Of a stretch of 64,000 nucleotides of DNA, positions 2,811 to 61,527 are shown piece after piece. Position 1 is the stretch's first letter, and each line of letters begins with the position of its first letter. The notes under the pieces are model-generated. The model made no database searches and had not been told where the DNA came from. It saw only the letters and a list, made by a program, of their open reading frames with translations. Position numbers and translations under genes: made by a program. Location: the IMG/VR virus record IMGVR_UViG_3300025133_000029, positions 64,001 to 128,000 of that record. The stretch is one strand, 5' to 3'. The DNA comes from a virus.

Positions 2811-2855
2811 AAAAAAAAGGGAAATCTTTAGAATCTAAAGATTTCCCTTTTTTTT
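2811..2855. repeat. Dispersed palindrome copy (core 2825-2841, N=A) extended to perfect 22-bp arms; terminator-like
   Basis: AAAAAAAAGGGAAATCTTTAGA-A-TCTAAAGATTTCCCTTTTTTTT. Confidence 0.95.
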
Positions 2856-2930
2856 TATTTAATCGGGTTTTTATATTTTGTTTACGGGGTTACTAATGGC
2901 AAAAACGAATAGGAAAGAGAGAAAGTTGAA

Positions 2931-3887
2931 ATGAAAATCCATGGCCTGATAATTGATCCTCAGATTTCCTTTTCTTGGCCCGGTCTGCAGGAACTCACGG
3001 GGAAGAATCCAGATGATATTCTTCCACCAGAAGTTCGACCCCATATGGGGGATATGTATGATCGTCTTTTGAATAGGGGTGAGTTATATGTGGACGGAGC
3101 CCATGAGGATATGCTGCGATTGGCAGCGATGTTGGATCGTTTGCGCGATAGGTTGGATGATGTTCATGTCACGCTCGATTCGCATCGGTTTGTGGATCAG
3201 GCGCATCCTTCTTGGTGGAGGCGTACTAGTGATGGATCCCCGCCCCCCCACTATACGATATTGGGGATAAATAACGATCGTGTCGTTCGGATGGATCCAC
3301 AGAGCGATGGATCGCTTGTTCCTACGGGAGATGAATTTACTACGCGCATCCCCTCTTTTATGTACAAAGGAGGGCCAACCAAGAAAGGGAGCAAAGGATA
3401 CCTGGAGGCGCTGGCGAGTAACGGTCGCTATCCCCATGTCGTGTGGCCAGTGCATTGTATGATCGGCACAATGGGCCACTTGGTTCACCCTGCGGTTATG
3501 GCAGCGCTACTGCGATGGGAAGAGCAGTTTTGTTCTGTGGACTATGTGACGAAAGGATCCAACCCACAGACGGAGCATTATTCTGGAGTGCAGGCAGAGG
3601 TTGTGGACCCCAGCGACCCCTCGACGCAGATCAATATGGAGTTGATACGGACTCTGGAAGAGGCCGATATTGTCTTTCTGGCGGGAGAAGCTCGATCCCA
3701 TTGCTTGGCAAACACGGCGAGAGATATTGTCGCAAAATTCTCAGATCCGAGCTATGTCAAGAAGCTCTATCTGATCGAAGATTGCACCTCTGATGTTCCG
3801 GGGTTTGAACATCTGGGCGAAAAGTTTGTTCAAGATATGGTGGGGTTGGGAATGAATGTTTCTAACTCATTAGATTTCTTGGCCTAG
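2931..3887 (+). CDS. Nicotinamidase/pyrazinamidase-like cysteine hydrolase (isochorismatase family)
   Basis: LIIDPQ (catalytic D), TLDSH, WPVHC, VTKG (K) and AGEARSHC (catalytic C). Confidence 0.85.
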   Translation: MKIHGLIIDPQISFSWPGLQELTGKNPDDILPPEVRPHMGDMYDRLLNRGELYVDGAHEDMLRLAAMLDRLRDRLDDVHVTLDSHRFVDQAHPSWWRRTSDGSPPPHYTILGINNDRVVRMDPQSDGSLVPTGDEFTTRIPSFMYKGGPTKKGSKGYLEALASNGRYPHVVWPVHCMIGTMGHLVHPAVMAALLRWEEQFCSVDYVTKGSNPQTEHYSGVQAEVVDPSDPSTQINMELIRTLEEADIVFLAGEARSHCLANTARDIVAKFSDPSYVKKLYLIEDCTSDVPGFEHLGEKFVQDMVGLGMNVSNSLDFLA

Positions 3888-3946
3888 ACATTGTTTGGGT
3901 CGATAAGTCTGAAGTAGTTCTTTTTACAAATATGGAGAGCGATTAA

Positions 3947-4687
3947 ATGCCTCGAATTACAGACGAGACAATGGAAGACCATCAGATGGGTGGTTCGAAC
4001 TATTCTTTTTCGGCGAAGAGGATAGACGACTTGGGAGCCTCAGAGTACACCCTCGCCTTTATCGCGGTGGACGTGACGGGATCGTTGCAAGGACAGGAAG
4101 CAAACCTCGAGAAGATGTTGAAGCTTTGTGTCGCGGCTTGCCGTAGAAACCCAAGAGCAGACAACATGATGCTTCGTGTTGTTTTGTTCTCCAGTCAGTT
4201 TCACGGGTATCTGGAGGAAATTCATGGTTTCCGACCTTTGCCCGAAATCAAGGAAGATGATTATACCGGGGTCATCGATTGCAGGGGGGGGACGCCACTG
4301 TACGAGGCGGCTTATACCAACCTGACCGCTTTGCAGCAATTCGCAAAAGATCTTTCGGACAACGACTTTTTTGTCAACGGCATCGGCTTTGTTTTGACCG
4401 ATGGCGAAGACAATATGTCCAAGGTCACTCGGACTATGGTGAAGGATTCGATCGGCGATCTGGTCAAGAGCGAGGATCTGGAGTCCTTTCGCCCAATCTT
4501 GATCGGCTTCGGGCAATCCACATGGCTGCGAAAATTTCAAAATGAAGCAGGCTTCGATCAGTTCGTCGATGCAGGGAGCGCGAGTGAGTCGACGTTGGCG
4601 AAGGTGGCAGACTTTGTGTCTCAGTCTTTGTCTTCTGCCTCGCAGTCTCTGGGAACTGGCGGTCCATCCGTTGCCCTGACTTTCTAG
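3947..4687 (+). CDS. vWA domain protein, TerY-like
   Basis: MIDAS-like DVTGS, GGTPLYEA, LTDGEDN; GGAG RBS; C-terminal VSQSLSSASQS. Confidence 0.8.
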   Translation: MPRITDETMEDHQMGGSNYSFSAKRIDDLGASEYTLAFIAVDVTGSLQGQEANLEKMLKLCVAACRRNPRADNMMLRVVLFSSQFHGYLEEIHGFRPLPEIKEDDYTGVIDCRGGTPLYEAAYTNLTALQQFAKDLSDNDFFVNGIGFVLTDGEDNMSKVTRTMVKDSIGDLVKSEDLESFRPILIGFGQSTWLRKFQNEAGFDQFVDAGSASESTLAKVADFVSQSLSSASQSLGTGGPSVALTF

Positions 4688-4708
4688 GGGCTTAGTTGAT
4701 ATGAGAAA

Positions 4709-4725
4709 TCTTTAGACTCTAAAGA
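4709..4725. repeat. Dispersed palindrome TCTTTAGA-C-TCTAAAGA
   Basis: Exact core; arms extend to GAGAAA/TTTCTC (4703-4731). Confidence 0.95.
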
Positions 4726-4898
4726 TTTCTCTGCTTGTTCGCGATTGTGGTGATTTCCGCAGTCGCGTTTTTTTTTGGTTTTTTTACATGTCGTATGACA
4801 CAAAAAGACACACAAGTTGGCTAGTCTTTTTGGGAGTCGAGAAGGGTTTTGTTCTTTCTTGACTAGTGGCTCTTTTTCTAGATAGGAGAGAAAATCTG

Positions 4899-7436
4899 AT
4901 GAGTACCACACAGCCCTTTAATCCTGATTGCAAGTTTATTATGTATGACTTTGCGGCTCGTCCCAAAGCTTACTTCGTCGCGGAGGAGTTGGATGTGAAG
5001 CCACCCGACCCTGGGGAGACAACAATGCGGGATGCGGCACATCACGTCATTGTTGTGGATCGATCAGGATCGATGTGGGGGGAGATGAAGTCGTTGAAAA
5101 ACACACTCCTGAAGCTTCTCACTCTTCAGGAGTATCGGGACAAGGCGCTCAAGGTGTCTTTGATTTCTTATTCGGGAGTTCGCGATCTGACTCTCCACTT
5201 TGAGAAGGTGGATGTCGCGGACATTATGGAGATGGACTCTCCATACCAAAAAGAAATCAAAAGCATCCGGGTCACGGGCTTGACTTGTATCAGTCAGGCG
5301 ATGCAAATGGCAGAGGGCTTAGTCGAGGATGGAGAGTTGACGTGTATCACTCTTCACACAGACGGCTACGCCAACGATCACTCCCCACGAGATGAAAGGA
5401 GAAAGTTGCGGGAGATCTGCAACCGACTGAAGGAACGCAACTGCTTCCTCAACACGATTGCATACTCGCGGTATAGCGACTTCCCGCTTATGGCGGAACT
5501 GGCGAACATGGTTTCGGGTTCTTGTGTGAAGGCACAGAGCGCAGCGGATGTGTATGACAGCTTGTATCAAACATCTTCTCTCTTGGCTCAAAGCGCTCCC
5601 CCGACGTTGGTCTTTCCTGATGGAAACGATTTCGAGCAGCAAGTGTATGTGGAGTGGGGGGGGAGAAAGGTCATCGGAAGCAACGGTGAGCTTGTTATCA
5701 GGGGTGTAGACTCCTGCGGTGATGTTAAGCTCTATCGCTATCAAGAGGTGTCTCAAAAAGAGTATGAATACTCGGATGCCTTCGACTGCCTCACGGGCTG
5801 GACGGATGACATCTTCCCGATATTGGCTTTTGTGCGATATTGTATTGCGTCGGGCCAACTGAATCGAGCGAAGTTTCTTTTGTTTTCGACTCTGAATATG
5901 ACGCTCTCTGATCGTCATGCAGCAGCGTTGGACAGTGAAAGGATTGCGGCGTTCGCCACAGACGTTGATGCGGCTCTCTTTGACAACTCGATGCCCGACA
6001 ATCACATCTTCGCGGACGAGATGGCCCCGAGTGACATGGTTTCGATTTTGGAGCTTGCAGAGCTTCTGAGTGAATACTCGGACGCCATCGAAATCAACAA
6101 AGAAGCGCTCTTCGAAGTGTACAACAAGAGAAGCGTGAAGCGTGTTCCGGGGAAGATTGACCCGTTGGGGAAATATATCCCGCCTCGCTTCAAGCTTCGC
6201 CCAAAGAACTCCAGTGATGAGTATTTCTCGATTCGGGGTGTGGAGTGCAACGAGTCGTCGGCCACCATTAATCTTCTCTTCTCGTATGAAGCGGATCTTG
6301 TGGAACAGGATGCGGGAGAGAATATCGTGGGGGTTGTCGAGGAGGTTTCCAGTGTTCGTTTGAACAATTTGCGCGATTATCGAAACTATACGCTGGTGGG
6401 CGACGGTCTACTGGCGGTACCGCATCTGCAGGTGAGGTTTCGATCCAAGAAAGCCTTTGCGGCTCTCGAGAGAGCGGGTCTGGTGGATGGTCCATGGAAT
6501 CCATCGGAAGATTACATTCTGGACTTGGAACATCTTCCACTGGTCGATTTCCAGGATGCAAGCTTCGACAGTCTCTCGGGCGAGTTTGAACGGATGGCCA
6601 AGCTCAAAATGCTCGCCAAGATGCTAGAGGCAGCTTTGAAGGGTCAGTCTGATCTGTACACGCCCGAGCAGATCGCAGCTCTCGACAGTCACCACCTCAA
6701 GCCATCGCTTTTCTATTCGGGTCCTTCGATCTACAAGTATGTCAAAGATGGCCTGACGCGGGAAGCGGCACTGAGCCAGGGGGTTCTTGATACGAGAGTG
6801 AAGCACAAGGTTCTCTTTGGCACAGAGGACACGTTGTCTCTCGATAAGATTCCGAGTGCCAACGCCTTCCTCCGGGCCTATTTCACAGTGACCGATGCGA
6901 AGGGGCAGTTGGTTGACAAGCCCACGGTGCAGGATGCCTTGGCCCCTAATGCGATGGTGGGTTGGAAGGTCTTGAGTTCGCGCAAAAAGGTGACGCGGCT
7001 CGACGATATGTTGAAGCCACTCGCCGCCTCCTTCTTTGGCATTGACACGCCCTACGAAGTGTTGTCGGTTCTTCGAAGCAGCAGCCTGAATCATCTCACA
7101 GATGACTTCGAAGACTTTAGCAATCGAGACGAATCGACAATCCTGGATGACCTTGTTGAGTTTTTGACTCAAATGAAGCGAGACGTCAAAGGGGTTATCG
7201 ATCGAGTCTACCGCGACAAGATTTGCCCCATTGTGTTTTACATCGGAGCCACTGGTTTGCTCCCCGATAACTATGATGTCCCGGCTATGGGGAAAGTGGA
7301 GCTTGGGGAAGTTTGCCCCAATATCAAAACGGGCAAAAAGGAAGAGGACGCCATCTTCTTCAAAGTAGATGATGTTCTTCTCACGGTCTACACGGAAGTA
7401 GCCGAGTTCTCCAGGGAACAAGCCGCCTCGAATTAG
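4899..7436 (+). CDS. Large vWA-domain protein with long uncharacterised C-terminal region
   Basis: MIDAS DRSGS...T...TDG. Start moved to ATG 4899, which follows an AGGAG RBS. Confidence 0.8.
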   Translation: MSTTQPFNPDCKFIMYDFAARPKAYFVAEELDVKPPDPGETTMRDAAHHVIVVDRSGSMWGEMKSLKNTLLKLLTLQEYRDKALKVSLISYSGVRDLTLHFEKVDVADIMEMDSPYQKEIKSIRVTGLTCISQAMQMAEGLVEDGELTCITLHTDGYANDHSPRDERRKLREICNRLKERNCFLNTIAYSRYSDFPLMAELANMVSGSCVKAQSAADVYDSLYQTSSLLAQSAPPTLVFPDGNDFEQQVYVEWGGRKVIGSNGELVIRGVDSCGDVKLYRYQEVSQKEYEYSDAFDCLTGWTDDIFPILAFVRYCIASGQLNRAKFLLFSTLNMTLSDRHAAALDSERIAAFATDVDAALFDNSMPDNHIFADEMAPSDMVSILELAELLSEYSDAIEINKEALFEVYNKRSVKRVPGKIDPLGKYIPPRFKLRPKNSSDEYFSIRGVECNESSATINLLFSYEADLVEQDAGENIVGVVEEVSSVRLNNLRDYRNYTLVGDGLLAVPHLQVRFRSKKAFAALERAGLVDGPWNPSEDYILDLEHLPLVDFQDASFDSLSGEFERMAKLKMLAKMLEAALKGQSDLYTPEQIAALDSHHLKPSLFYSGPSIYKYVKDGLTREAALSQGVLDTRVKHKVLFGTEDTLSLDKIPSANAFLRAYFTVTDAKGQLVDKPTVQDALAPNAMVGWKVLSSRKKVTRLDDMLKPLAASFFGIDTPYEVLSVLRSSSLNHLTDDFEDFSNRDESTILDDLVEFLTQMKRDVKGVIDRVYRDKICPIVFYIGATGLLPDNYDVPAMGKVELGEVCPNIKTGKKEEDAIFFKVDDVLLTVYTEVAEFSREQAASN

Positions 7437-7498: not shown

Positions 7499-7515
7499 TC
7501 TTTAGAGTCTAAAGA
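7499..7515. repeat. Dispersed palindrome TCTTTAGA-G-TCTAAAGA
   Basis: Exact core, between vWA and PP2C genes. Confidence 0.95.
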
Positions 7516-8976: not shown

Positions 8977-10734
8977 TTGCGGATTTATTTAGAAGGTGGT
9001 GGATATATAAATTTAAATCAAAGTCACTATGTCGGAGGAGGTGGCGAGGGTGATGTTTATACAAAGAATGGAGTTGCGTATAAAATTTATCACAATCCTA
9101 TAAAAATGATTCCATTGGGAAAAGTGACAGAATTATCAGTTTTGCGTAATTCGTGTTTCATAAAGCCCGAATCAATTATTTTCGATAAAAAGAAAAACCC
9201 TTTGGGATATGCTATGCGCTTTGTACAGGGCGGGATACCCTTATGTTCTATTTTTCCTCCGTCTTATAGAAAAAGGCATTCTATCACTCACGATCAGATC
9301 TATGAGCTTATTGGAGAATTGAGTGTGGGGATTTCGCTTGCGCACAAAGAAGGGATTATTTTAGTTGATCTCAATGAAATGAATTTCCTGGTGTCGCCTG
9401 ATTTCTCGTCTGTTTGGTTTATTGACGCAGACAGCTATCAGACCCCTTCTTTTCCAGGCACTGCTATCATGGAGTCGATCCGCGATTGGAGCAGCAATGT
9501 TTTTACAGAGCTATCGGATTGGTTTAGTTTTGCGGTGATTTCTTTTCAGATGTTTACGGGCATTCATCCTTTTAGAGGTAAATATAAGGGACCTAAAGAG
9601 CAATATAGAAAGAAATTGCCCTCTGACACAGAAGGGGATGATTTTGCGATAACAAGGCGGCGCATGAAGGATAATATCTCTGTTTTCGATCCAGATGTGG
9701 GAGTTCCACGAGTGGCGTATCCCTTTGATGTTATACCTGATGATTTTCTTGATTGGTATAAGAAGATTTTTGTTAGAGGTGAGCGCCTTCTACCGCCAAC
9801 ATTAGTAGGGGATGTGATTTTTATTGCTCCTCAAATAACGAATCTGGAAAGCACCGACAGGCTTGTCGTCCAGCTGTGGCATTCTTTTGGAAAAGATATT
9901 TTAGATATCGTTCAGGATTCTTTGGGCAATAGATCCTTTATAAAGTTACCGGGTGAGGTTTTCGAAGAAAGACGATTTATTCATGCCCACACTTGCGGCC
10001 AAGTGGCATTGACTAGGAGTGGTTGTCCTATCGAAGTATTCCTATATAAGGATGATGGATTAAATAAAATTAGAATTTCTATTTTGAGCAATGATCTGAC
10101 GTTTACAGATGGGGATAGGATTAAATATTTGGATGTCGCGGCAGAATCTATTTCTGTCTATGAAGGAAATGCTTATGCAAAGTGCGGCAGTTCAATTATT
10201 CGCATCGACTGCGCTGCCGGGAAGATCCCAATCTTCCCACATGTTACTGACGTGCTCCCACATGCTTCTTATTTATTTAGTGGAGGAGTTCTGCAGAATC
10301 TTCTTGGTTCGGCTTACGTTTCTTTGTTTGTGAATATAAAGGAAACGCACCAAATAAGATTGGGAGAATTGGATGGCTATCAAATCATCGAAGCCAAATT
10401 TGATAGAAGAGTGCTTATTGTTAGGGCAAACAAGGACGGAAAGCTGAATCGCCTTGTCTTTAGATTCGCAGATGATTTCTCAGATTATGATGTTCGTTTG
10501 GTAAAAGATATTGCGAATGTGGGGATTAATTTTGTTGTTTTAGATTCAGGTGTTTGTGTTTTGATGGACGAAGAAGAGAACATCGAAGTTTTTCGTTCGA
10601 AACCGGGAAAGATACAGGTTATGAAAGTTGAAGATGATTCTTTGGGTGGGGATATGAGATTGATTCGATGGGGAGGGAAGTTGGGATTTACTAGGGGTAG
10701 CGGTCTCTATACTTTGTCTATGAAGTCAATTTGA
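8977..10734 (+). CDS. Ser/Thr protein kinase, YegI-like
   Basis: GGGGEGDVY Gly loop, AYKIY, VDLNEMNFLV catalytic loop, FIDADSY, SDWFSFAV..FQMFTGIHPFRG. Confidence 0.85.
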   Translation: MRIYLEGGGYINLNQSHYVGGGGEGDVYTKNGVAYKIYHNPIKMIPLGKVTELSVLRNSCFIKPESIIFDKKKNPLGYAMRFVQGGIPLCSIFPPSYRKRHSITHDQIYELIGELSVGISLAHKEGIILVDLNEMNFLVSPDFSSVWFIDADSYQTPSFPGTAIMESIRDWSSNVFTELSDWFSFAVISFQMFTGIHPFRGKYKGPKEQYRKKLPSDTEGDDFAITRRRMKDNISVFDPDVGVPRVAYPFDVIPDDFLDWYKKIFVRGERLLPPTLVGDVIFIAPQITNLESTDRLVVQLWHSFGKDILDIVQDSLGNRSFIKLPGEVFEERRFIHAHTCGQVALTRSGCPIEVFLYKDDGLNKIRISILSNDLTFTDGDRIKYLDVAAESISVYEGNAYAKCGSSIIRIDCAAGKIPIFPHVTDVLPHASYLFSGGVLQNLLGSAYVSLFVNIKETHQIRLGELDGYQIIEAKFDRRVLIVRANKDGKLNRLVFRFADDFSDYDVRLVKDIANVGINFVVLDSGVCVLMDEEENIEVFRSKPGKIQVMKVEDDSLGGDMRLIRWGGKLGFTRGSGLYTLSMKSI

Positions 10735-12274: not shown

Positions 12275-12291
12275 TCTTTAGACTCTAAAGA
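12275..12291. repeat. Dispersed palindrome TCTTTAGA-C-TCTAAAGA
   Basis: Exact core, upstream of DHH gene. Confidence 0.95.
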
Positions 12292-14462: not shown

Positions 14463-14479
14463 TCTTTAGAATCTAAAGA
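14463..14479. repeat. Dispersed palindrome TCTTTAGA-A-TCTAAAGA
   Basis: Exact core with GA/TC flanks. Confidence 0.95.
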
Positions 14480-17008: not shown

Positions 17009-17025
17009 TCTTTAGAGTCTAAAGA
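17009..17025. repeat. Dispersed palindrome TCTTTAGA-G-TCTAAAGA
   Basis: Exact core, intergenic. Confidence 0.95.
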
Positions 17026-19738: not shown

Positions 19739-21157
19739 CTAGTTTTTTTGTGTTTTTGGCACCGGGACAATTGGAATGGACTCTGCTTTAGAATCTTTAG
19801 AGTCTAAAGATTCTTCTTCCAGAATCTTTCCTTGCTCGTCGAATTCTATATCGACGGGTGTTATATCGGATAATTCTCCAGATATGAGGTGTGGCTCAAT
19901 TCCAACTCGTTTCATTCTGTCGAGAATAATGGCTCCATATCCAGGATCAAGCTCTATCCCATATCCTCGGCGACCCGTGCTTTCTGCGGCGATAAGAGAA
20001 GTGCCGCTTCCCAAGAAAGCATCGTATACAGAATCTCCGGGGTTTGTGTGGTTTTCTATAGGTCGGCGCATGCATTCTATTGGTTTTTGTGTTCCATGAC
20101 CTGTTTGTTCGTCGAGTTCGTCATTTCCTCCTCCAAAGGCAGCCAGATTTCTTATTTCCCAAACATTTGATTGTTTTCTTCCTCCCTGCCAATTTGCGCT
20201 CTTTCCCTTTCTTACTGCATACCAAGCCATCTCATATTGTTGGTGGTAGTGACTTCTTGAGAATGCAAAGTGTTGCTTTTTCCAAACAACCATTGTTCTT
20301 GGTATAAAGTTGCAGTCTCGCAGTCCATCCATAATAACATCGGTAAATATGGCGGCGTGCCATACATAGGCAACATCTCCGGGAAAGAGTTTATATGCAT
20401 CTCGCCAGTCTGCTATGTGGTCATTAGCGACTTTTCCAGTAGATCGAACATTTCCTCGCATTGTGTCAGCTTCATTTCTCCATCCCGGATCATAGTTCAC
20501 TCCGTAGGGAGGGTCGGTAACCATAAGGAGTGGAACTTCACCACCAAAGAGAGTACTTACGGCTTGAGGATCTGTTGAAGATCCGATCATGAGTCTATGG
20601 TCACCGCATTGCCAGAGTTGTCCTAGTTGAGTTTTCCATTCGCGTTGCATGTCCTCTCTGGGGTCAAAGTCTTGTCTGTTTTCTTCATCACGGACATTGT
20701 TTTTCTTTTGATCGATTTTGACGCCTTGAAGGATTTCTCGGAGGTCTTCGGTTTTGAAACCTGTTCCTCTTAGTTTTATTGCGCTTTGTTTTACGTTCTC
20801 GAGTATTTCTGAAAGTATTTTATTGTCGTACGTTGCGATGTCAGATGTGCGGTTATCGGCGAGGAGTATTCGGAGAGCTTGGTCATCATCTACGTCTATA
20901 AATATAACGGGGACTTTAGTTTCTCCTTCTTCCAGGAGAGCTTTGTATCTGTGGTTTCCAACAAGGATGAAATTTGTTGTTTTTTGAACAATCAATACGC
21001 CATAGAAACCATTAACTTGAAGGCTTTCGCGTATGAGGTCGATGTTTCCTTTTCTTGGGTTTCTTGGGTGAGTAAACACTGAATCAATGGGAACTTCTTC
21101 AATAGAAGATCCATCATTCAGGAAGTGTATTTTTTGTTCTTGCTTGATTTCTTCCAT
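19739..21157 (-). CDS. ParB-like N-terminal domain fused to a beta-class N6A/N4C DNA methyltransferase
   Basis: HPRNPR...ILVGNHRY (ParB/Srx); TDPPY (motif IV), HGTQKP, DAFLGSGT (motif I). Confidence 0.9.
   Translation of the reverse strand: MEEIKQEQKIHFLNDGSSIEEVPIDSVFTHPRNPRKGNIDLIRESLQVNGFYGVLIVQKTTNFILVGNHRYKALLEEGETKVPVIFIDVDDDQALRILLADNRTSDIATYDNKILSEILENVKQSAIKLRGTGFKTEDLREILQGVKIDQKKNNVRDEENRQDFDPREDMQREWKTQLGQLWQCGDHRLMIGSSTDPQAVSTLFGGEVPLLMVTDPPYGVNYDPGWRNEADTMRGNVRSTGKVANDHIADWRDAYKLFPGDVAYVWHAAIFTDVIMDGLRDCNFIPRTMVVWKKQHFAFSRSHYHQQYEMAWYAVRKGKSANWQGGRKQSNVWEIRNLAAFGGGNDELDEQTGHGTQKPIECMRRPIENHTNPGDSVYDAFLGSGTSLIAAESTGRRGYGIELDPGYGAIILDRMKRVGIEPHLISGELSDITPVDIEFDEQGKILEEESLDSKDSKAESIPIVPVPKTQKN
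19794..19810. repeat. Dispersed palindrome TCTTTAGA-G-TCTAAAGA inside the MTase 3' end
   Basis: Exact core; encodes SLDSKD. Confidence 0.95.
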
Positions 21158-25214: not shown

Positions 25215-25231
25215 TCTTTAGAATCTAAAGA
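25215..25231. repeat. Dispersed palindrome TCTTTAGA-A-TCTAAAGA
   Basis: Exact core, about 30 nt upstream of the 998-aa gene start. Confidence 0.95.
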
Positions 25232-26520: not shown

Positions 26521-26897
26521 TCTTCGTTGTCGGGGAGCATGTTGTTGTTCCCTCTTCGTTCGACCTTCGCTCCTTGTATGGCATCAACGACGGGGGCAAG
26601 AATGGGGTAGCTCCGACGATCGGAGAGGACACCGTTTTGACTGATTCCGTGTGGGTCACAAAAAACGGTGCCATCTCTGTAGAGCATTAGAGATCGAACG
26701 TCGAGTTCTTCTGGGTATCTTTGTGCGCGAGATAGCCCGAATGGATCGTTGAGGTCGACAACATATCCATCCGGGAGACCGATAGAGGAACGGCACTGCA
26801 GCAAGACTCTGTCGTCTTCCAACACAATTGCAACCCAATCCCTACCTAGTGGGATTGCGTTTCCTATATTGGGTGGTGGTTCTTTTTCTTTGGGCAT
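26517..26897 (-). CDS. Hypothetical protein
   Basis: 126-aa ORF. Confidence 0.55.
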   Translation of the reverse strand: MPKEKEPPPNIGNAIPLGRDWVAIVLEDDRVLLQCRSSIGLPDGYVVDLNDPFGLSRAQRYPEELDVRSLMLYRDGTVFCDPHGISQNGVLSDRRSYPILAPVVDAIQGAKVERRGNNNMLPDNED

Positions 26898-26921: not shown

Positions 26922-26938
26922 TCTTTAGAGTCTAAAGA
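26922..26938. repeat. Dispersed palindrome TCTTTAGA-G-TCTAAAGA
   Basis: Exact core, AAAA/TTTT flanks. Confidence 0.95.
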
Positions 26939-28304: not shown

Positions 28305-28321
28305 TCTTTAGACTCTAAAGT
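28305..28321. repeat. Dispersed palindrome, 1 mismatch (TCTTTAGA-C-TCTAAAGT)
   Basis: In the divergent TerS/ParB intergenic region. Confidence 0.85.
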
Positions 28322-28531
28322 TTTTTATGTTTGGGGCTTGAGTTTTTTTTATATGAGAGTATCTTGTTTTTTCCGCATCTCCGAGGAGCAGAGGTTTTTT
28401 AGTATGATCTCGGAGTTCTGCTCTATTTCTTTCTAGTAATTGGCGTAAATGCTTGGCTTTCTACAGGAAAGAAGATCAATTTTTTATTATTGCGAGGTGC
28501 CCTTGTCGTCTAATCATTAAGGAGATTGAGT

Positions 28532-29884: not shown

Positions 29885-29928
29885 AATCCCGCATCGAGGT
29901 TCTTTCTTCCCCACTCACACCCCTCCTT

Positions 29929-38296: not shown

Positions 38297-38313
38297 TCTT
38301 TAGAGTCTAAAGA
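38297..38313. repeat. Dispersed palindrome TCTTTAGA-G-TCTAAAGA
   Basis: Exact core; first of a pair. Confidence 0.95.
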
Positions 38314-38353: not shown

Positions 38354-38370
38354 TCTTTAGACTCTAAAGA
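38354..38370. repeat. Dispersed palindrome TCTTTAGA-C-TCTAAAGA
   Basis: Exact core; starts 57 bp after the previous copy. Confidence 0.95.
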
Positions 38371-41023: not shown

Positions 41024-41129
41024 TCTCTCTTAGCGTTGCCGCGCTCAGAGAATAAAAAGGCAGGTTTACTTTTCATGAAATGGAATCTTTAGAACTCAAA
41101 AGATCTTCTGGCAAACACAAAGTCAAAAA

Positions 41130-41146
41130 TCTTTAGATTCTAAAGA
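41130..41146. repeat. Dispersed palindrome TCTTTAGA-T-TCTAAAGA (degenerate partner at 41086-41103)
   Basis: Exact core in the MCP leader. Confidence 0.95.
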
Positions 41147-41213: not shown

Positions 41214-42704
41214 ATGTACCCACCCGTCAGTCTTTCTCAATATAACGAGATGGGCTTGCATGGTTTTGGACATGGAACTCGACAGCAAGTCGACGAACTG
41301 AACAAAGCCCTCTCCGCAGGCTACGTCACAGATCGGACCAACATGACAGGCGGCAACGCACTTCGTGTCGAGTCTTTGGAAGAATCTTTGAAGGTTCTCA
41401 CCTTCACCGATCGCCACCTTAAGCTCTGGCCCAAAATCCACAAGAGCCCCGCGTACTCCACTGTAGAAGAATACAATCAGCTTACGAGCTATGGGAATGA
41501 TTTCTACGGTCCCTTCATTGGAGAGGGACAAACTCCTCAGTCGAATGACTCCAACTTCCAGCGTAAAACTGCGCTCGTGAAGTTCATGGGCACGACCCGA
41601 GAAGTTTCACACCAAGCCACTCTCGTCCATCCAGCACACGGTGACTTGATTGCGCTCGAGAACCAGAACGGAATCATGTGGCTCCTTCGCCAGATTGAAG
41701 TCTTCTTGTTCAAAGGAAATCGAAACCTCGCCTTCAGTGGTGAGAGTGTGATGTTCGATGGGCTCGATCAACTGATCGATTCGAGCAACTATCTCGACGT
41801 TGAGGGTTCCCCTCTTCAAGAGAGCGACTTCGAAGAAGCCAGCAACCTGCTCGCCGAAAACTACGCCTTCCCCACTGACGCCTTCCTCGGCTTCCGTCCC
41901 ATGTCGGACCTCGTGAAGACCTTCTATCCCCGCCATCGTGTGCAGCTTCCTTCCCCCACGGATGGTCGCATTGGACAAGCCGTAACAAGCATGTCCACAC
42001 AAGCGGGTGTGTTGAACTTCAACGCAGACGTCTTCATCCAACGACCTGAGACTGCTCCCGACACTGTTCGCGGTCCCTCCACTATGGTCCCCACCGCTCC
42101 TGCAGGATTCTCGACCCTCGCGGTTACCGTTTCGACAGACGGTGAATTCGATAAGAGCCAGGGTGCCGACGACGCCGTTTATGGATACAAGGTCTCGGCC
42201 TGTAACCAGTATGGCGAATCCGTGGCCTCTGTTGCCGCGATTACCCCCACCCTCACGGGCGCAAACGCAGAGGCGGGGCACGTCATCACCTTCGTCATCA
42301 AAAACGCCGCAGCGCTCACCAATCCTCCCGAATACTTTAACGTGTATCGGACCCTCGCTCTGACTGCGACGACAACCTTGTCCGACGTTCAAGCTCTCTC
42401 CGCTCTCGCGTTCTCTCGTATTCTTCAGGTCCGCGCACGATCCCAGGCCGCAAACGGTTTGACTCCTGCCTCTCCTGGTGTTGAGACAGACAAGAACCAA
42501 TTCATGCCATTCACGGAGATGGCCTACGTTGGAGAGCTTTCTCCGCAGGTGATAACTTGTCGCCAATTGGCTCCTCTGATGAAGATCGACCTTGCCCTCC
42601 AAGGACCCGTCTATCGTTGGATGATCTTGGCGTACATGGTCCCGATTCTCTTCGCTCCGCTGAAGTTCATGAGAATTCTGAACATCGGTAGATTGGGTAG
42701 CTAG
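41214..42704 (+). CDS. Major capsid protein, Herelleviridae (SPO1/Twort)-like
   Basis: LNKALSAGY..D....GGNALRVESLE..LKVLTF, AYSTVEEY, FDGL..LID, LAPLMKIDLA; strong codon bias; AGGAG RBS. Confidence 0.9.
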   Translation: MYPPVSLSQYNEMGLHGFGHGTRQQVDELNKALSAGYVTDRTNMTGGNALRVESLEESLKVLTFTDRHLKLWPKIHKSPAYSTVEEYNQLTSYGNDFYGPFIGEGQTPQSNDSNFQRKTALVKFMGTTREVSHQATLVHPAHGDLIALENQNGIMWLLRQIEVFLFKGNRNLAFSGESVMFDGLDQLIDSSNYLDVEGSPLQESDFEEASNLLAENYAFPTDAFLGFRPMSDLVKTFYPRHRVQLPSPTDGRIGQAVTSMSTQAGVLNFNADVFIQRPETAPDTVRGPSTMVPTAPAGFSTLAVTVSTDGEFDKSQGADDAVYGYKVSACNQYGESVASVAAITPTLTGANAEAGHVITFVIKNAAALTNPPEYFNVYRTLALTATTTLSDVQALSALAFSRILQVRARSQAANGLTPASPGVETDKNQFMPFTEMAYVGELSPQVITCRQLAPLMKIDLALQGPVYRWMILAYMVPILFAPLKFMRILNIGRLGS

Positions 42705-42746
42705 GTAAAAGCTTTCCCAATCTAGGGACTCTCGTAAGAGTTCTCT

Positions 42747-42784
42747 AAAAGCCTCCCCTGATATTAGTCGGGGGAGGCTTTTTT
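42747..42784 (+). terminator. Rho-independent terminator after MCP
   Basis: AAAAGCCTCCCC...GGGGAGGCTTTTTT. Confidence 0.85.
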
Positions 42785-44285: not shown

Positions 44286-44302
44286 TCTTTAGAGTCTAAA
44301 GA
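44286..44302. repeat. Dispersed palindrome TCTTTAGA-G-TCTAAAGA
   Basis: Exact core, intergenic. Confidence 0.95.
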
Positions 44303-48329: not shown

Positions 48330-48773
48330 ATGTATATAGAATACAAATTTCTAAAAATACCTGAAAAATATTTAGATGCAGTAAGTGCGATGATTGCAGA
48401 GTATTTATTTGGTTGGACTGATTTGGAGGAAGTAATTGTTTTTGACGATGAGGTTATCTGGTATGGAGTTGACGTATCAACGGGGCTAAGGTCTCCTGTT
48501 CACAGCTATCATAATGTGACTGATATTCGAGTTTTTATCTTAGAGATGGCTAAGAAGGGATTGGAAGTTGATATAGGATCGTGTTTGTATTTATATCCAG
48601 AGCGATTTAGGTATTTGAGTACGGTGACGAAAATAAGAAAAAAAACAAAAGGTCCTGTAATCTTAGCAGAGCGATATGGGGATGTTTTGACTTTGACACT
48701 ACTAGAAGCTATTTTATGTTCTCTGGGTCACGAAAATGAGTTGGAAACACTGCGGCGAAATTATAACCTTTAG
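48330..48773 (+). CDS. Phage ABA-sandwich-like domain protein
   Basis: IAEYLFGW...VHSY pattern, also present in 50663-51175. Confidence 0.45.
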   Translation: MYIEYKFLKIPEKYLDAVSAMIAEYLFGWTDLEEVIVFDDEVIWYGVDVSTGLRSPVHSYHNVTDIRVFILEMAKKGLEVDIGSCLYLYPERFRYLSTVTKIRKKTKGPVILAERYGDVLTLTLLEAILCSLGHENELETLRRNYNL

Positions 48774-48783
48774 AGTCTAAAGA
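48767..48783. repeat. Dispersed palindrome, 1 mismatch (CCTTTAGA-G-TCTAAAGA)
   Basis: Overlaps the TAG stop of 48330-48773. Confidence 0.85.
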
Positions 48784-49179: not shown

Positions 49180-49452
49180 ATGCTTTACAAGGTAAGTGAT
49201 GGTTCGGTGAGTTACCATGTCTTTGCGGCTATGGATGAGATGGTTCTGGGGGTGTTGCAAGAGGGTGCAGATCTATCTGATGAGGAGATGGAGGGGTTCT
49301 CGATTGAACGACACTATCCAAATGATGTTGTCGTTACTGTTTCTTTTGAGGGAGGGGTGTGCGATCCCGTCCATCTGGCTGCCGAGCAATGGGTTGCCTT
49401 ATGGGAGAGCTTCTTGGGGAAAGGTTCTGCTATCTTGTCTTGTTCAGAGTGA
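49180..49452 (+). CDS. Hypothetical protein
   Basis: GGAG RBS, 90 aa. Confidence 0.5.
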   Translation: MLYKVSDGSVSYHVFAAMDEMVLGVLQEGADLSDEEMEGFSIERHYPNDVVVTVSFEGGVCDPVHLAAEQWVALWESFLGKGSAILSCSE

Positions 49453-49466
49453 TAGGGGTTTATAAA

Positions 49467-50687
49467 ATGATAATAGATGAAGTTGTACAGAATTTATGTT
49501 TTTTGACTCTTCATGGTTCAAGAGCTTATGGAACATCTCGTCCTGATTCAGATTGGGATGTTCGTGGAGTCGCCATAAGTTCGATGGATTGGCATCTGGG
49601 TTCAAGGAAATGGGAGCAGACTCAAGAAAATCATCCTCGAGTGAAACATTTATTGGGTGAGAGATTCCCATCTGCTCTCGAACATCCCGATCCTTTGGAT
49701 TGCGAGATAAGGTGTTTGAGAAAATTTGTATCTTTGGCATCGGATTGCAATCCAAACGTTCTGGATGTTCTCTTTGCGGATCCAAAAGATTGGATTTTTG
49801 CAACGCGCCCATGGATAAACCTTTATGAAGAGAGACATCGCTTTCTTTCTCTTAGAGTCCAGCATACTTATACAGGGTATGCCGTATCGCAACTGAAGCG
49901 AATTGTTCGTCATAGGGGGTGGTTACTTAATCCACCGTCTAAAAAACCAACGAGAGAGGGGTTTGGTCTTCCTCCACATAAGAAATTAGTAAACAAGGAA
50001 CTGAGTGATCTTGTGGAGTCTTTGTTATCAAAAAAAATAAATGAGTGGAGACTAGATCAGTGGTTTGAATCGATGCCCGAAGAGGTGAGGGATTCTTTTC
50101 GTGAAGATTTGTCTGCTTATTTTGAGATGGTTCACGGTCGTCATATGGATGGGCATAAAGAGCATGAGCGGTATCAGGCTTCGCAAGCGGTGGGTTTGCC
50201 GGATCATTTATTTGAGGAGATTGAGAGAGAGAGAAGATTCCCCAATGCTATGAAACAATGGAAGCAATATCAAAGTTGGAAAAAAAACAGAAACCCAGAA
50301 AGAGCGAAACTAGAAGAAGAGTTTGGGTATGACTCCAAACACGCGAGTCATTTGGTGCGACTCCTCCTAAGTGCTCAAGAAATATTGAGTACGGGAACAC
50401 TGAGTGTTCGGCATCCCTATGCAGAATTACTGAAAGAAGTACGTTCTGGTGAGTGGGAATATGATCAACTAATTGAGGAGGCAGAGAATCATAAGGAAGC
50501 AATTAAGGAATTGGTAAGAGAAAACCCAAAGAATCTTCCGAAGTCTACGGATAAATATTCTATTGGAATGATCTCAACAGAAATTATATTGGAAGCAAAT
50601 GGATATGTCCCAATGGGAAGTGGATTGGATGAAATTTTCCCTTATCCAAACTTGGCAGGGATCTATCCAAACTTAGGAGGGGATTGA
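49467..50687 (+). CDS. DNA polymerase beta superfamily nucleotidyltransferase (YcgL/RlaP-like)
   Basis: HGSRAYGTSRPDSDWDVRG (GS...DxD), CNPNVLDVLF, YDSKHASHLVRL, LKEVRSG. Confidence 0.85.
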   Translation: MIIDEVVQNLCFLTLHGSRAYGTSRPDSDWDVRGVAISSMDWHLGSRKWEQTQENHPRVKHLLGERFPSALEHPDPLDCEIRCLRKFVSLASDCNPNVLDVLFADPKDWIFATRPWINLYEERHRFLSLRVQHTYTGYAVSQLKRIVRHRGWLLNPPSKKPTREGFGLPPHKKLVNKELSDLVESLLSKKINEWRLDQWFESMPEEVRDSFREDLSAYFEMVHGRHMDGHKEHERYQASQAVGLPDHLFEEIERERRFPNAMKQWKQYQSWKKNRNPERAKLEEEFGYDSKHASHLVRLLLSAQEILSTGTLSVRHPYAELLKEVRSGEWEYDQLIEEAENHKEAIKELVRENPKNLPKSTDKYSIGMISTEIILEANGYVPMGSGLDEIFPYPNLAGIYPNLGGD

Positions 50688-51848: not shown

Positions 51849-51865
51849 TCTTTAGACTCTAAAGA
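51849..51865. repeat. Dispersed palindrome TCTTTAGA-C-TCTAAAGA
   Basis: Exact core, AGA/TCT flanks. Confidence 0.95.
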
Positions 51866-54824: not shown

Positions 54825-55019
54825 TTATTTGCCAACCTGGGTTATAATTGCTCTCTTGGCATCCCATTTGTGTGTAAAGTATCGGGAGTAGAGTACAAAG
54901 TAGTCAACCGGGCATCGTGGGTCTGACACCCATTCGCGAATGGTTTTGGTTTCCCCCCATGCGGTGATAGTGAGTGTGTTTCTTTTGGATGGAGTAGTGA
55001 TTGCTTCCTCGGCGCTCAT
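54825..55019 (-). CDS. HNH-associated DNA-binding repeat protein, possibly a gene fragment
   Basis: TAWGETKTIREWVSDPRC...W repeat shared with 55264-56118. Confidence 0.45.
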   Translation of the reverse strand: MSAEEAITTPSKRNTLTITAWGETKTIREWVSDPRCPVDYFVLYSRYFTHKWDAKRAIITQVGK

Positions 55020-56203: not shown

Positions 56204-56220
56204 TCTTTAGACTCTAAAGA
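56204..56220. repeat. Dispersed palindrome TCTTTAGA-C-TCTAAAGA
   Basis: Exact core, between divergent genes. Confidence 0.95.
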
Positions 56221-56925: not shown

Positions 56926-56930
56926 TCTGC

Positions 56931-58727
56931 CTACGACTTCATCTCTTTTTGAATCTCAGATTGATATTTTTTATCGAGTTTCCGTGGCTTCAGTATTTTT
57001 GATCGAACAAGCGCCTGCATGAGGAATTTGAACTCCTCGAGCGACCATTCGGTTATTCCCTTTGTTTCACCATCGGGCAGGTATCTATCTGGTGTGTCGT
57101 ACATGCGGCGAAAAGCACCGATCGCCTGTTGTTTACTTGGGAAGTTGAGAGCCACTTTGTCATCGTAAGGCTCGTCGTCTGTGTGTGGGTCTACAACGTG
57201 AAATACCCAAACCTTCTTTGGAGATTCTTCGTTTCCAAGAAAAACATCCAGGTGGTCTCCATCCGGTGCTATGCCAAGAGTTCCGCGGATATATCCATAA
57301 TCAGCAGGCATCGTTGTTGACCAAGATTTTCCTTGTGGTGATTCTCCTGATCTAGTGTTTCCTTGCGAGGTCTCGATCGAAATTCTCAGACCGTGATCAT
57401 ATTGTCTGGCATCGAGGGCACGTCTTCCTTTGTTTACATTGTCTATGGCCAGTGGGTCATTGTTTTGTGGGATAAAGATGTGTCGCAAGTGATCGATGTA
57501 TTGACGATGGAACTCGATACCTAAGAGGTTAGCAAGAGAGGAGATGGCTTCGATGTGTTGGATGATATAGCTGAAGCCCCAATAACCATCTTGTCGATCA
57601 TAGTGCAATGGAACACCCAGGACGGGACTAAGTAATTCTTCAAACAGTCGAGCTAAACATCTCCGAGGAGCGTCATTGTTGTGCAACCCATCCATGCGCC
57701 GTTTGTAGTGTTGTTGCATTTTATGTTCTGGGGTGAAGTGCAGTGGATGAATTCCGGTGCTTTTATCGGGGACGATGAGATTCCATTCTTGCGATGCTCG
57801 GATAAATTCTCTGACGTTTTTGTCCGCACTGGATGCTCTCTGTCCAAATCCTGTGTGGAAATCGAGCGCTTCCAGGAGGGCATGGGTCAGTGTATTGTTA
57901 GGCTTGTTTTTGTCTGGTTCCAGAATTGCTAAAGTGCGCCAATGAGATCGGTAGTAGCCAATCATCGAGTCGCCGGAGGATTTGTGTGTTTCTACAACAA
58001 GACCAATCCCGTGTCTTGCTAATGCTTCTCTTACACAAAATGCTCGATGGAGCTTGCCCATGTATGCAGTCAGTTGTTGAAACACAGGAAGTGCTAATTC
58101 ATATTGTCCTGCGAGCGGACCATCTTGTGGAGAGAAAAGTATCAAACCCCATCGATCCCATGCTTGTTGGATGTATTGTTCATACATTCGAACCCAAGGA
58201 TGTGCATCGGGATCTACTCCGAAAGACTTATAGTATTCTCTCCAGCCTATCGGGTTGTTTACCAAGTACTCTCTGGCAATAACGGCATCTCGTGTATGCC
58301 CAGAAAGCAGAAAGTGTTGGGGCGTGGTTTTATTCTGTTGGCTTTCTACCTGCGAAAGCATGAACACATAACTGGATGCGTCTTGTATAGCATCTTCGCT
58401 CATGGAGGGATGATTGTCTTCTTCCATGACTTGATGTTGTTGTAGTTCTACCAGAGCAGTAGAGCGAGATGTTTCTTCAGGAGCATCCATCAGAGCTTTG
58501 TATAGAGTTATTCGCTTTTGATGCAGAAAGAGATCTCGTCCACGAGTAGAAAGAGATGCGGCACCAGAACTTAATGTTGGCGCTGCATCTGTCGTCCATA
58601 TTTTTTCTATCTCAAGAGGAGGAGGTGGCGGGAGAGTTCCTTGTGTGTTGGTCCATTGTGGTGACCATGATACCTTTTTCTCACAGGGATGTTTATCGTC
58701 TAGACTGCCAAATGCAAAAGTAAACAT
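56931..58727 (-). CDS. Polyvalent-type protein: degenerate LPD1/zincin-like domain plus inorganic-pyrophosphatase-like (InPase) domain
   Basis: GLRISIET..G..RSG...WSTTMPADYGYIRGT..DGDHLDVFLG...YDDKV; TLTHALLEALD and CLARLFEE. Confidence 0.65.
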   Translation of the reverse strand: MFTFAFGSLDDKHPCEKKVSWSPQWTNTQGTLPPPPPLEIEKIWTTDAAPTLSSGAASLSTRGRDLFLHQKRITLYKALMDAPEETSRSTALVELQQHQVMEEDNHPSMSEDAIQDASSYVFMLSQVESQQNKTTPQHFLLSGHTRDAVIAREYLVNNPIGWREYYKSFGVDPDAHPWVRMYEQYIQQAWDRWGLILFSPQDGPLAGQYELALPVFQQLTAYMGKLHRAFCVREALARHGIGLVVETHKSSGDSMIGYYRSHWRTLAILEPDKNKPNNTLTHALLEALDFHTGFGQRASSADKNVREFIRASQEWNLIVPDKSTGIHPLHFTPEHKMQQHYKRRMDGLHNNDAPRRCLARLFEELLSPVLGVPLHYDRQDGYWGFSYIIQHIEAISSLANLLGIEFHRQYIDHLRHIFIPQNNDPLAIDNVNKGRRALDARQYDHGLRISIETSQGNTRSGESPQGKSWSTTMPADYGYIRGTLGIAPDGDHLDVFLGNEESPKKVWVFHVVDPHTDDEPYDDKVALNFPSKQQAIGAFRRMYDTPDRYLPDGETKGITEWSLEEFKFLMQALVRSKILKPRKLDKKYQSEIQKEMKS

Positions 58728-59946: not shown

Positions 59947-59963
59947 TCTTTAGAGTCTAAAGA
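59947..59963. repeat. Dispersed palindrome TCTTTAGA-G-TCTAAAGA
   Basis: Exact core, intergenic. Confidence 0.95.
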
Positions 59964-60045
59964 TTATATAGATGGGGTGGGGAGAGGATTTAGATTAGGA
60001 GTGTGGGGGAGGGGAAGTGGTGGGATTGGGGTGGGGTGTTTGGGC

Positions 60046-60459
60046 TTAGGAGATTCGGTGGAATTCGACTTCGACCCAAAGCTCGAGGATGCCAGCATCG
60101 CCATCGGTCAGTTCGATATCAACAGTATCGACGCCACCTGTAAAGAGGGAGTAGGCAGCGGTTGTGCTCAGGTCGCCAGAATTGACGGACTTGCCAACGG
60201 CAGTGGCACTGGAAAGATCCATGACAGCAGCGAGGGCAGAGTTTGCACCGCTCTTTATATCGAGGGTGTCACCTGCGCCACCGACTCCACCAACGAGGAG
60301 GGCTTTGGCGGATTTGAATTGCAAGACCATTCCAGTGGGAACAGCAACACTGACAGTCCCTGCAGCAGTGAGTTTTTGTACAAACTTAGGATTGTTTGAC
60401 CATGCTCCATTGAGTTGTGGGGCAGAGTTTTCGGCACCTATTTGCGTGGGAAACGACAT
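60046..60459 (-). CDS. Probable virion structural protein
   Basis: 137 aa, small-residue beta-rich, AGGAG RBS. Confidence 0.55.
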   Translation of the reverse strand: MSFPTQIGAENSAPQLNGAWSNNPKFVQKLTAAGTVSVAVPTGMVLQFKSAKALLVGGVGGAGDTLDIKSGANSALAAVMDLSSATAVGKSVNSGDLSTTAAYSLFTGGVDTVDIELTDGDAGILELWVEVEFHRIS

Positions 60460-60521
60460 AAGGAATTTCTCCTATATTGTGGGGTATATGCTTTGTTTGT
60501 GATGTTTGCGTGTGTAGGGGT

Positions 60522-61130
60522 TTAGGATTTGCGGGTAGAGCGTCGGAAGTGTGCAGAGTTCACGTCAAGAGCTTTGGCGATGTCACTCGGCTCGAGTCGC
60601 ATTTTATCAGTGGGGGATGCGATGAGAGAGACACCGATGGTTCGAACGCCTACTTCCGCATTGTTGAAGGAAACGTAGATGAGGGTTTGTTTGGGGATGA
60701 TGATGTTTGATTTTTTCCCAGTGACGGTATCTCCGATAGCCACTCCATCGATTTGCTTGAGGAACTTGATGGACTTTGCGGGAAAGTTATTGGTAGCAAA
60801 CCCGGTCACGCCGAAAGTTGTCCCTTCGGTGCCAGTTCCCCCAACGACGTCAGCATCAGCTGCAGTTCGTGTATGCAGCTTGATGGTCGTACCCGCTGCG
60901 ATAAGAGCATTGTTCTGAAGGTTTGCGATAGCGATTTGTTTGATATGTACAGGATGCTCGAAGAAGCCAAGGCAGACGTGTTTTTCTTGTCCACTATTTG
61001 TTTCGATTTCACGCATACTGCAAATTTCAGCAACGTTGAGTTGCTCTGTGATCTCACGAACAACATTCGATCCAAGATCATCAATAACGCGAATCTCGTT
61101 TCCAGATCCGGCTCTGCGGTTTCTACCCAT
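60522..61130 (-). CDS. Probable virion structural protein
   Basis: 202 aa, beta-rich, AGGAG RBS. Confidence 0.55.
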   Translation of the reverse strand: MGRNRRAGSGNEIRVIDDLGSNVVREITEQLNVAEICSMREIETNSGQEKHVCLGFFEHPVHIKQIAIANLQNNALIAAGTTIKLHTRTAADADVVGGTGTEGTTFGVTGFATNNFPAKSIKFLKQIDGVAIGDTVTGKKSNIIIPKQTLIYVSFNNAEVGVRTIGVSLIASPTDKMRLEPSDIAKALDVNSAHFRRSTRKS

Positions 61131-61293
61131 TGTTTTGTTCTCCTGTGTTTGCCAATTGAATCTATAAACAAGCCTATAAAAATAATGACTTGCTCGTTAT
61201 TCTTACACGTAGGAGGGTATGCGAAAGATTCTTTTCTGGTCAAGTTATAAAAAAATGTCAGCTTTTTATTTAGTATTACGTTATATTGTATAT

Positions 61294-61498
61294 AGCATTC
61301 TGCGAAGTACCCCCTCACTGATCAGAATGCTGCCCTTGGAAGCCTTTCAGGCAGGTGATTGTTTTATTCTAACGCGAGTTGAGACCCAACCCTTCCCTCC
61401 GGGTTGGAGTTTCCTCCCTCAGAATAGAGATGAGTGGATCCCCACCAAAGAACTCATCTCATAAAACGTTCGCCTCCTGGAAGGCTTCTTGTTTTTTG
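61294..61498 (+). ncRNA. Candidate structured non-coding RNA
   Basis: 5' hairpin 61294-61331; about 19-bp closing stem 61339-61358/61470-61488 with U-G pairs on +; two internal hairpins; U-rich tail. Confidence 0.5.
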
Positions 61499-61510
61499 TA
61501 GTTCTTTTCT

Positions 61511-61527
61511 TCTTTAGACTCTAAAGA
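61511..61527. repeat. Dispersed palindrome TCTTTAGA-C-TCTAAAGA
   Basis: Exact core, intergenic. Confidence 0.95.

Follow-up and report, generated by a model that had tools for sequence, protein, structure and literature searches.

Operators of the ParB-family protein KorB occur at 12 sites on the IncP-1 plasmid RK2; they read TTTAGCSGCTAAA, with TTTAGCGGCTAAA as the core of the published oligonucleotide (PMC11790492). A similar palindrome, TCTTTAGA-N-TCTAAAGA, is dispersed over a 64,000-nucleotide stretch of viral DNA (the window, to which all positions refer unless the record is named). The window comprises bases 64001-128000 of the 161,002-base virus record IMGVR_UViG_3300025133_000029 in IMG/VR, and it also carries the gene of an orphan ParB (28532-29884). 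The record was estimated by CheckV to be 68% complete, and its source DNA is present in marine metagenomes. Judged by its sequence, it belongs to a marine jumbo phage of about 235 kb, because contigs of 228-235 kb carry a relative whose capsid protein is 67% identical. A first-pass annotation of the window had read the palindrome and the gene together as a KorB-like system that regulates or segregates the phage chromosome. Membership of the ParB family, the likeness of the operators and the joint occurrence of gene and sites in relatives are borne out below, whereas orthology to KorB and, for want of a ParA, the centromere part of the proposal are not. On balance, the palindrome would appear to be read by the phage's own orphan ParB.

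The cores TTTAGA-S-TCTAAA of the phage and TTTAGC-S-GCTAAA of OB (S being G or C) are identical at five of six arm positions when the published OB oligonucleotide is used, so the operator likeness pointed out earlier is real. It is a likeness between sites and says nothing on who binds them. Both systems have a ParB-family protein and a 13-bp odd palindrome with a single G or C at its centre and the same T, A and G arm positions, and in both the sites are dispersed at about one per 3-5 kb, at varied distances from promoters. Neither protein has the glutamate of the phosphate motif, the residue being alanine in KorB and phenylalanine here, and the equivalents of KorB R117 and N146 are kept. The phage ParB differs in being closer in sequence to Noc and Spo0J than to KorB and in having long Lys-rich and acidic tails, and no IncC/ParA partner was found in the 161-kb record. 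The sites number at least 49, compared with 12, and are carried by a probably lytic phage of about 235 kb and not by a plasmid.

Noc of Bacillus subtilis tethers DNA to the membrane via an N-terminal amphipathic helix, and its sites are even-length palindromes of 14-16 bp, tens of kb apart. It is the best sequence match of the phage ParB (7nfu, 7ol9, 6y93), and it is likewise a ParB-type CTPase that works without ParA, at many dispersed palindromes on one chromosome, in a function other than partition. In the phage, however, the sites are 20 times denser and the N-terminus of ParB is a 95-residue Lys-rich tail. In the phage-plasmid N15, SopB acts on four inverted-repeat centromere sites, IR1-IR4 (PMC7205306). 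N15 is similar in being a phage genome with several separate palindromic sites of the ParB type, but it encodes SopA, has no more than four sites and needs partition for its life as a plasmid prophage, whereas in the present record no ParA was found and no sign of lysogeny was seen. Mycobacteriophages of cluster A have stoperators, asymmetric sites that follow the direction of transcription and are recognised by the immunity repressor of a temperate phage, and those of cluster O have 17-bp dyad repeats. In both cases tens of copies of one short site are found genome-wide and mostly between genes, as here, and to our knowledge neither type of site has been tied to a ParB protein. Orphan ParB-type CTPases are common on phages and other mobile elements, and a survey of them does not name DNA sites for those of phages (PMC12704722). 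The motif strings occurred in no paper of the literature searched, which is consistent with the earlier statement that no such system has been described for a jumbo phage.

Number, spacing and architecture of the palindrome

Eighteen exact copies of the 17-mer were found in the window by pattern search, compared with none in 100 dinucleotide-preserving shuffles, and all of them lie where they had been placed by eye. When up to three mismatches were allowed, the window gained just the copies at 28305, 33452 and 48767, each listed previously as a one-mismatch copy, and an overlapping half-site at 19785. A copy described as degenerate, at 41086-41103, is real; it reads TCTTTAGAACTCAAAAGA, contains an indel and is located 44 bp before the copy at 41130. 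No copy in the window had been missed by eye. The centre of the exact copies is mostly G or C, as claimed (14 of 18; 7 G, 7 C, 3 A and 1 T), and an average spacing of about 3 kb was also borne out.

The whole record contains 49 exact copies, with none expected, and 52 when the outermost pair is free to vary. Gaps between copies have a mean of 3.0 kb and a maximum of 7.3 kb. The coefficient of variation (CV) of the gaps was 0.53, compared with 0.98 for random placement and 1.52 for random intergenic placement, and none of 5000 random trials was equally even. Thirty-nine of the 52 copies are wholly intergenic; intergenic DNA makes up 10% of positions in a greedy map of open reading frames (ORFs), which corresponds to an enrichment of about 7-fold. 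The first-pass annotation had called nearly all copies intergenic. This holds as an enrichment, but the copies at 19794, 33452 and 48767 overlap coding sequence. Copies were found between co-directional, divergent and convergent genes alike.

An alignment of 74 copies from three phages gave a wider consensus of about 25 bp, AAAA-TCTTTAGA-S-TCTAAAGA-TTTT, in which the information declines symmetrically towards both ends. Sixty-eight of the 74 copies have G or C at the centre, with no preference between the two on the plus strand (37 C, 31 G). Isolated half-sites are rare, nearly all of the 57 occurrences of TCTTTAGA in the record falling within full sites. Sixteen variant copies were available from four stretches of DNA. 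Fourteen of them are altered in a single arm, and the remaining two carry, in both arms, a tolerated T/A alternative at the outermost pair. Changes confined to one arm fit two half-sites that are read independently. On these features of its sequence, the palindrome is probably a two-half-site protein operator on double-stranded DNA, and a few copies may double as terminators.

From left to right in the window, the palindrome of the first exact copy (2825-2841, centre A) reaches 14 bp further on each side and gives a strong two-way hairpin (-24.6 kcal/mol). The second (4709-4725, centre C) is followed by a separate GC-rich terminator-like hairpin at 4740-4767. The copy at 7499-7515 (centre G) is intergenic, past an 856-aa vWA gene, that at 12275-12291 (centre C) is in a divergent intergenic region, and those at 14463-14479 (centre A) and 17009-17025 (centre G) are intergenic. 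The copy at 19794-19810 (centre G) lies within the 3' end of a ParB_N-methyltransferase gene, and the extra half-site at 19785, GCTTTAGA, adjoins it. A divergent intergenic region holds the copy at 25215-25231 (centre A), and the copies at 26922-26938 and 31014-31030 (both centre G) are intergenic. Between the latter two, a one-mismatch copy at 28305-28321 (outermost A to T, single arm) is placed between a helix-turn-helix (HTH) gene (27502-28212, minus strand) and the divergent parB, 227 bp before the parB ATG; the earlier remark that one site lies upstream of parB is therefore correct. The next one-mismatch copy, at 33452-33468 (T to G beside the centre, single arm), is in the 5' part of a 1647-aa gene. 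After that gene and before the genes for head protease, scaffold and capsid, two exact copies form a tandem pair 57 bp apart (38297-38313, centre G, and 38354-38370, centre C). The copy at 41130-41146 (centre T) stands 67 bp before the major capsid gene. Those at 44286-44302 (centre G) and 51849-51865 (centre C) are again intergenic, and the one-mismatch copy at 48767-48783 (outermost T to C, single arm) is at the end of an ORF. The last three copies are located in divergent (56204-56220, centre C; 59947-59963, centre G) and convergent (61511-61527, centre C) intergenic regions.

The ParB-family protein

The parB gene (28532-29884, plus strand) encodes 450 aa from an ATG preceded by AAGGAG. 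A promoter-like element, GCGTAAATGCTTGGCTTTCTACA, is found before it at 28444-28466 (plus strand) and is a weak match to the motif TAAATGCTCTGC-TTTTTTATAC. The protein is laid out as a Lys-rich tail (residues 1-95), a ParB-CTPase domain, an HTH, a Lys-rich linker, a predicted dimerisation domain (about 322-400) and a 60-residue acidic tail. Lys-rich N-terminal tails are also present in P0127 and P0132, two members of the same ParB clade.

Matches to Pfam were under the curated cut-off for ParB_N (E 2.6e-4) and just under it for HTH_ParB (E 2e-4, residues 209-279), with the domains in the right order. PHROG ParB families were matched at E 9e-15. The N-domain and the HTH also aligned to solved Noc, Spo0J and ParB chains, with E-values between 6e-8 and 1e-6. 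A structural model built from 63 homologues (pLDDT 94.7) has the helices of the HTH ordered as in the family, and its best Foldseek matches were CTP- or CDP-bound ParB, Noc and KorB (E 6e-10 to 7e-9; TM 0.58/0.66 for KorB 8qa9_B). In sequence, KorB chain 8qa8 matched at just E 0.12, compared with 6e-8 for Noc. The phage ParB was ruled out as a KorB orthologue on this ground, being nearer to chromosomal ParB and Noc, and its structural likeness to KorB is at the level of the family only.

Two copies of residues 322-400 were predicted to pair with each other with a score of 0.76 (best control 0.01; pLDDT 83; at least 94% of contacts agreeing between runs), a pass that may owe partly to likeness to solved ParB dimerisation domains. 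Twenty of 30 solved pairs attained the mark for self-pairing, as did 1 of 23 single chains.

The nucleotide-pocket motif ENxQRxDL is intact as ENLQRKDL, and its residues E204, N205, Q207 and R208 do not vary across the aligned clade. The phosphate motif GERRxR, which is GARRYR in KorB, aligns to GFSRFK here and to GFRRxxA in the clade; in GFSRFK, Glu is replaced by Phe, the first Arg by Ser and the last Arg by Lys. Throughout the clade, the Gly and the equivalents of KorB R117 (Arg) and N146 (Asn) are invariant. KorB has Ala at the position of the phosphate-motif Glu, yet hydrolyses CTP (PMC11790492). By its HTH, the modelled CTPase fold, the ENLQRKDL motif and the PHROG and Protein Data Bank matches, the gene encodes a true ParB-family protein with an HTH, as had been proposed.

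No AAA_31 or CbiA match, and so no ParA-type ATPase, was found in the 161-kb record, which is about 68% complete. Because no ParA was found, a classical centromere role is unlikely, and this leaves the segregation part of the earlier proposal weak.

Occurrence of ParB and palindrome in related phages

A word-based homologue search with ParB returned only the protein itself and two 30% matches. ParB or the capsid protein as a single query against IMG/VR gave no related loci, and a DNA search with the 1647-aa gene against cultured phages gave no match. The ParB clade was found by an exhaustive profile-free search, and capsid relatives were found with a capsid alignment as query. P0131-P0133 were left out of the motif comparison, being on contigs too short to judge.

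L371 and L372, in which ParB is 38% and the capsid protein 67% identical, carry AAA-ACTTTAGA-C-TCTAAAGT-TTT. The 228-kb relative L287 shares the order of genes in the head region and has a capsid protein at 67% identity, but most proteins in common are at only 28-52% identity. Nine copies of TTTAGA-N-TCTAAA are nevertheless preserved in 21.5 kb of L287, among them a tandem pair at the place of 38297/38354. CTTTAGA-N-TCTAAAG is common to the present phage, L287 and L371/L372. L368 (ParB 40% identical, G+C 50%) has a different palindrome, GTTAGG-N-CCTAAC, in four copies in 19 kb, two of which, 57 bp apart, are directly upstream of parB.

In a blind screen of 80 capsid relatives, a repeated palindrome was found in L199 alone. 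When a profile of the ParB clade was run against ten larger relatives, one member was obtained (E 4.7e-55), in G008, the relative with the palindrome of the blind screen; this palindrome had been seen before the ParB of G008 was known. It reads GTTCAGT-S-ACTGAAC, occurs 15 times in 105 kb with a gap CV of 0.52, and a variant, TTTAGT-C-ACTAAA, stands 96 bp before the parB of G008. A copy or variant is located upstream of parB in three lineages. No dispersed palindrome was seen in the ParB-negative G004, G005, G011 and G012, which were read whole, or within about 21 kb around the capsid gene in the other five ParB-negative relatives.

Four ParB-clade lineages thus each have a dispersed odd palindrome, in lineage-specific variants, and the variants come from lineages of different G+C (45, 50 and 54%), each with its own diverged ParB. 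The association of motif and ParB clade, which the first-pass annotation had suggested looking for, is present in the relatives, and none of the nine ParB-negative relatives shows the palindrome over the lengths given. Numbered from the centre, the arms CTTTAGA of the present phage, tGTTAGG of L368, GTTCAGT of G008 and TTTTAGC of KorB OB all have T at -5, A at -3 and G at -2, beside a single central base.

The 17-mer also occurs at the same density on an IMG/VR contig, G001 (16 sites in 66 kb, gap CV 0.46), and on G002, which is 98.8% identical to it. Both encode tail genes, and none of these matches a protein of the present record. Occurrence of the motif without shared proteins had been considered as a hint at a host factor. 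This was resolved: the record is about 68% complete, and a longer, 79-kb metagenome contig that contains G001 has two small proteins in common with it. One of the two is a 64-aa protein with WGETKTIREWVSDPRC (54825-55019, minus strand), which is found twice in tandem on the 79-kb tail contig (L314 7387-7686). In L287, a neighbouring ParB_N gene was examined as a ParB orthologue and rejected, as it resembles the N-domain of the methylase fusion described below.

Several genes at or near parB were recorded separately. A 465-aa antisense frame (28517-29914, minus strand) spans the whole of parB and is longer than it. A longest-ORF rule therefore picks the wrong strand at parB, and it gave a spurious antisense tblastn match on the parB of L368. 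The divergent neighbour (27502-28212, minus strand) encodes a 236-aa protein with an N-terminal HTH (HTH_23, Terminase_5-like), perhaps the small subunit of a terminase or some other DNA-binding protein; weak homologues (22-35% identity) are present in three ParB-negative relatives. A 126-aa clade-specific protein is encoded 1.6 kb from parB (26517-26897, minus strand) and, in L368, directly after parB (9938-10333). It is a candidate ParB partner, as a lead only.

Recognition of the palindrome

If the palindrome is read by the phage's own ParB, AAAA-TCTTTAGA-S-TCTAAAGA-TTTT would be the specific DNA site of a dimer of this protein, with one HTH per half-site. On the model of KorB, Noc and ParB, this site would serve as a loading gate. 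A dimer bound to it would bind CTP, its N-terminal domains would close into a clamp, and the closed clamp would slide from the site onto flanking DNA. With a site every 3 kb or so, evenly placed between transcription units, the whole chromosome of about 235 kb would come within reach of the clamps. We infer binding of the site by ParB, CTP use and sliding, and the role of the array. The starting points are the sites themselves with their spacing and independent half-sites, the fold, HTH and predicted dimerisation of ParB, and the fact that the two occur together and diverge together in one clade.

The most likely role of such an array, on the model of KorB, is genome-wide control of phage transcription, because copies stand at the borders of transcription units and near promoter-like elements and a conserved tandem pair precedes the head operon. 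As a second possibility, the array would serve to coat, compact or protect the phage DNA, with the Lys-rich tails contributing. It is also conceivable, though rather unlikely, that ParA-less ParB clamps coat the whole chromosome of about 235 kb and that their histone-like Lys-rich and acidic tails make up a phage-built chromatin, which would time expression or shield and compact the DNA, and would not be a repressor circuit of the plasmid style.

A number of observations weigh against ParB as the reader. Its phosphate motif is weakened (GFSRFK, compared with GFRRxxA in the clade and the canonical GERRxR). No ParB orthologue was seen in the fragments examined of the motif-carrying G001 and L287. 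The phages positive for both ParB and palindrome form one clade in the capsid tree (100/100); the pattern of presence and absence therefore represents a single evolutionary event and cannot single out ParB among the clade-specific genes. Thirteen other proteins of the phage have a homologue in G008, are absent from the four ParB-negative genomes and could include the reader. ParB is only 38% identical where capsids are 67% identical, yet the same core motif is kept, with no visible joint change, and no pattern of recognition-helix residues following the motif variants was seen. Finally, flank positions 1 to 3 are complementary beyond composition, an effect that is weak but significant (p 0.002 to 0.03) and that a hairpin would also give.

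The palindrome could instead be the operator of a different dimeric DNA-binding protein, either a clade-specific phage protein or a factor of a shared host, with ParB as a bystander. We judge this unlikely, but it deserves serious consideration, as the site looks like a protein site for which ParB is a candidate reader. Exact conservation of the motif between phages whose proteins are 30-67% identical is easier to reconcile with a reader that changes slowly, for instance a host protein, than with a ParB at 38% identity. The 13 clade-specific proteins would offer phage-encoded readers, and most of them have no known domain. Those with a recognisable domain (RusA, T5orf172 and zinc ribbon), however, include no typical dimeric sequence reader, and the architecture of the site is that of a known ParB-family operator. 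The motif also differs between lineages of 45, 50 and 54% G+C, each with its own diverged ParB. In bacterial genomes, only single chance copies of the motif were present among the matches listed, although a host with many copies could still exist.

It is quite improbable that the palindrome acts as structure, either as an RNA hairpin (a terminator, or a site for an RNase or RNA-binding protein) or as a DNA hairpin or cruciform in replication or recombination. The location of copies between genes, the A-runs and T-runs that flank the core and the complementary flanks would suit such a role, and a clade-specific RusA junction resolvase is encoded. Two copies, at 2825 and at record position 10040, are parts of long perfect palindromes, which were picked up by a terminator scan and would work two-way. 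Typical copies, in contrast, give a weak core RNA hairpin (-4.6 to -9 kcal/mol), and separate GC-rich terminators adjoin some copies, at 4740-4767 after the copy at 4709 and beside record position 152218. The single-arm changes in 14 of the 16 variants disrupt pairing, and the sequence of the stem top is itself conserved, not just its pairing. G and C are used near-equally at the centre on the plus strand, and no relation to gene direction could be made out by eye.

Copies are also found both upstream and downstream of promoter-like elements, which speaks against a purely structural role. With respect to TAAATGCTCTGC-TTTTTTATAC, some copies are 9-21 nt upstream and others just downstream, and most of these motifs have no copy nearby. 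The copy at record position 152218 has a terminator-like hairpin on one side and a promoter-like TAAATGC motif on the other. No promoter motif common to the flanks of the copies was seen by eye. The motif TAAATGCTCTGC-TTTTTTATAC itself occurs in about 25 copies at record positions 133800-161000, mostly on the minus strand and before short gene cassettes, and in the window at 15297 and 28446, the latter being the weak copy before parB. It does not match the sigma-70 consensus.

That the copies mark a control of DNA methylation, read by or with the ParB_N-methyltransferase (19739-21157), is very improbable: GANTC is at the centre of every copy and a ParB_N and N6_N4 methyltransferase fusion is encoded, but GANTC occurs 794 times in the record, with just 54 in the palindrome, is missing from the L368 (GGWCC centre) and G008 (GTSAC centre) variants, and the ParB_N domain of the fusion has no HTH match. 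Over- or under-representation of GANTC in the record was rejected, the count being near expectation. The fusion gene (minus strand; Pfam E 1e-21; phrog_498 E 6e-102) encodes a second, HTH-less protein of the ParB fold.

Other features of the record

The RusA Holliday-junction resolvase (Pfam E 4e-15) is encoded at record positions 42107-42772; it is present in G008 and absent from the four ParB-negative relatives. A copy of the palindrome, at record position 42596, is inside its gene. At record position 142206, a (TA)10 run is found between inverted repeats (CCCAACGAGC ... GCGAGTGGG), amid two palindrome copies 107 bp apart, and similar strings ending in GAGCTTATATATATA follow the copies at record positions 134029 and 136772. 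Tandem 10-bp repeats (GCTAGCGGGG, GCTAGCTAGG and GTTAGCGGGG) are grouped in several blocks towards its right-hand end, at record positions 157370-160900, and might be a terminal repeat or an array related to replication. Accessory genes unusual for a phage were also observed in the window. They encode a large vWA protein (4866-7436), a protein-kinase-like protein (8977-10734), RlaP, a nucleotidyltransferase of an RNA-repair pathway (49359-50687), and an InPase-domain protein (56931-58727).

Implications

The locus provides a ready candidate pair of site and protein in a jumbo phage, together with three natural specificity variants in sister lineages. Its scale, the even spacing of the sites, the jumbo-phage setting and these variants make it notable. 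It is suited to asking how specificity of the ParB/KorB type evolves, what evenly spaced loading sites achieve, and whether the whole chromosome of a lytic virus is controlled or organised by CTP clamps. If ParB does bind the palindrome, the model of long-range silencing by KorB, which concerns a 60-kb plasmid, would apply also to viral genomes of four times that size.

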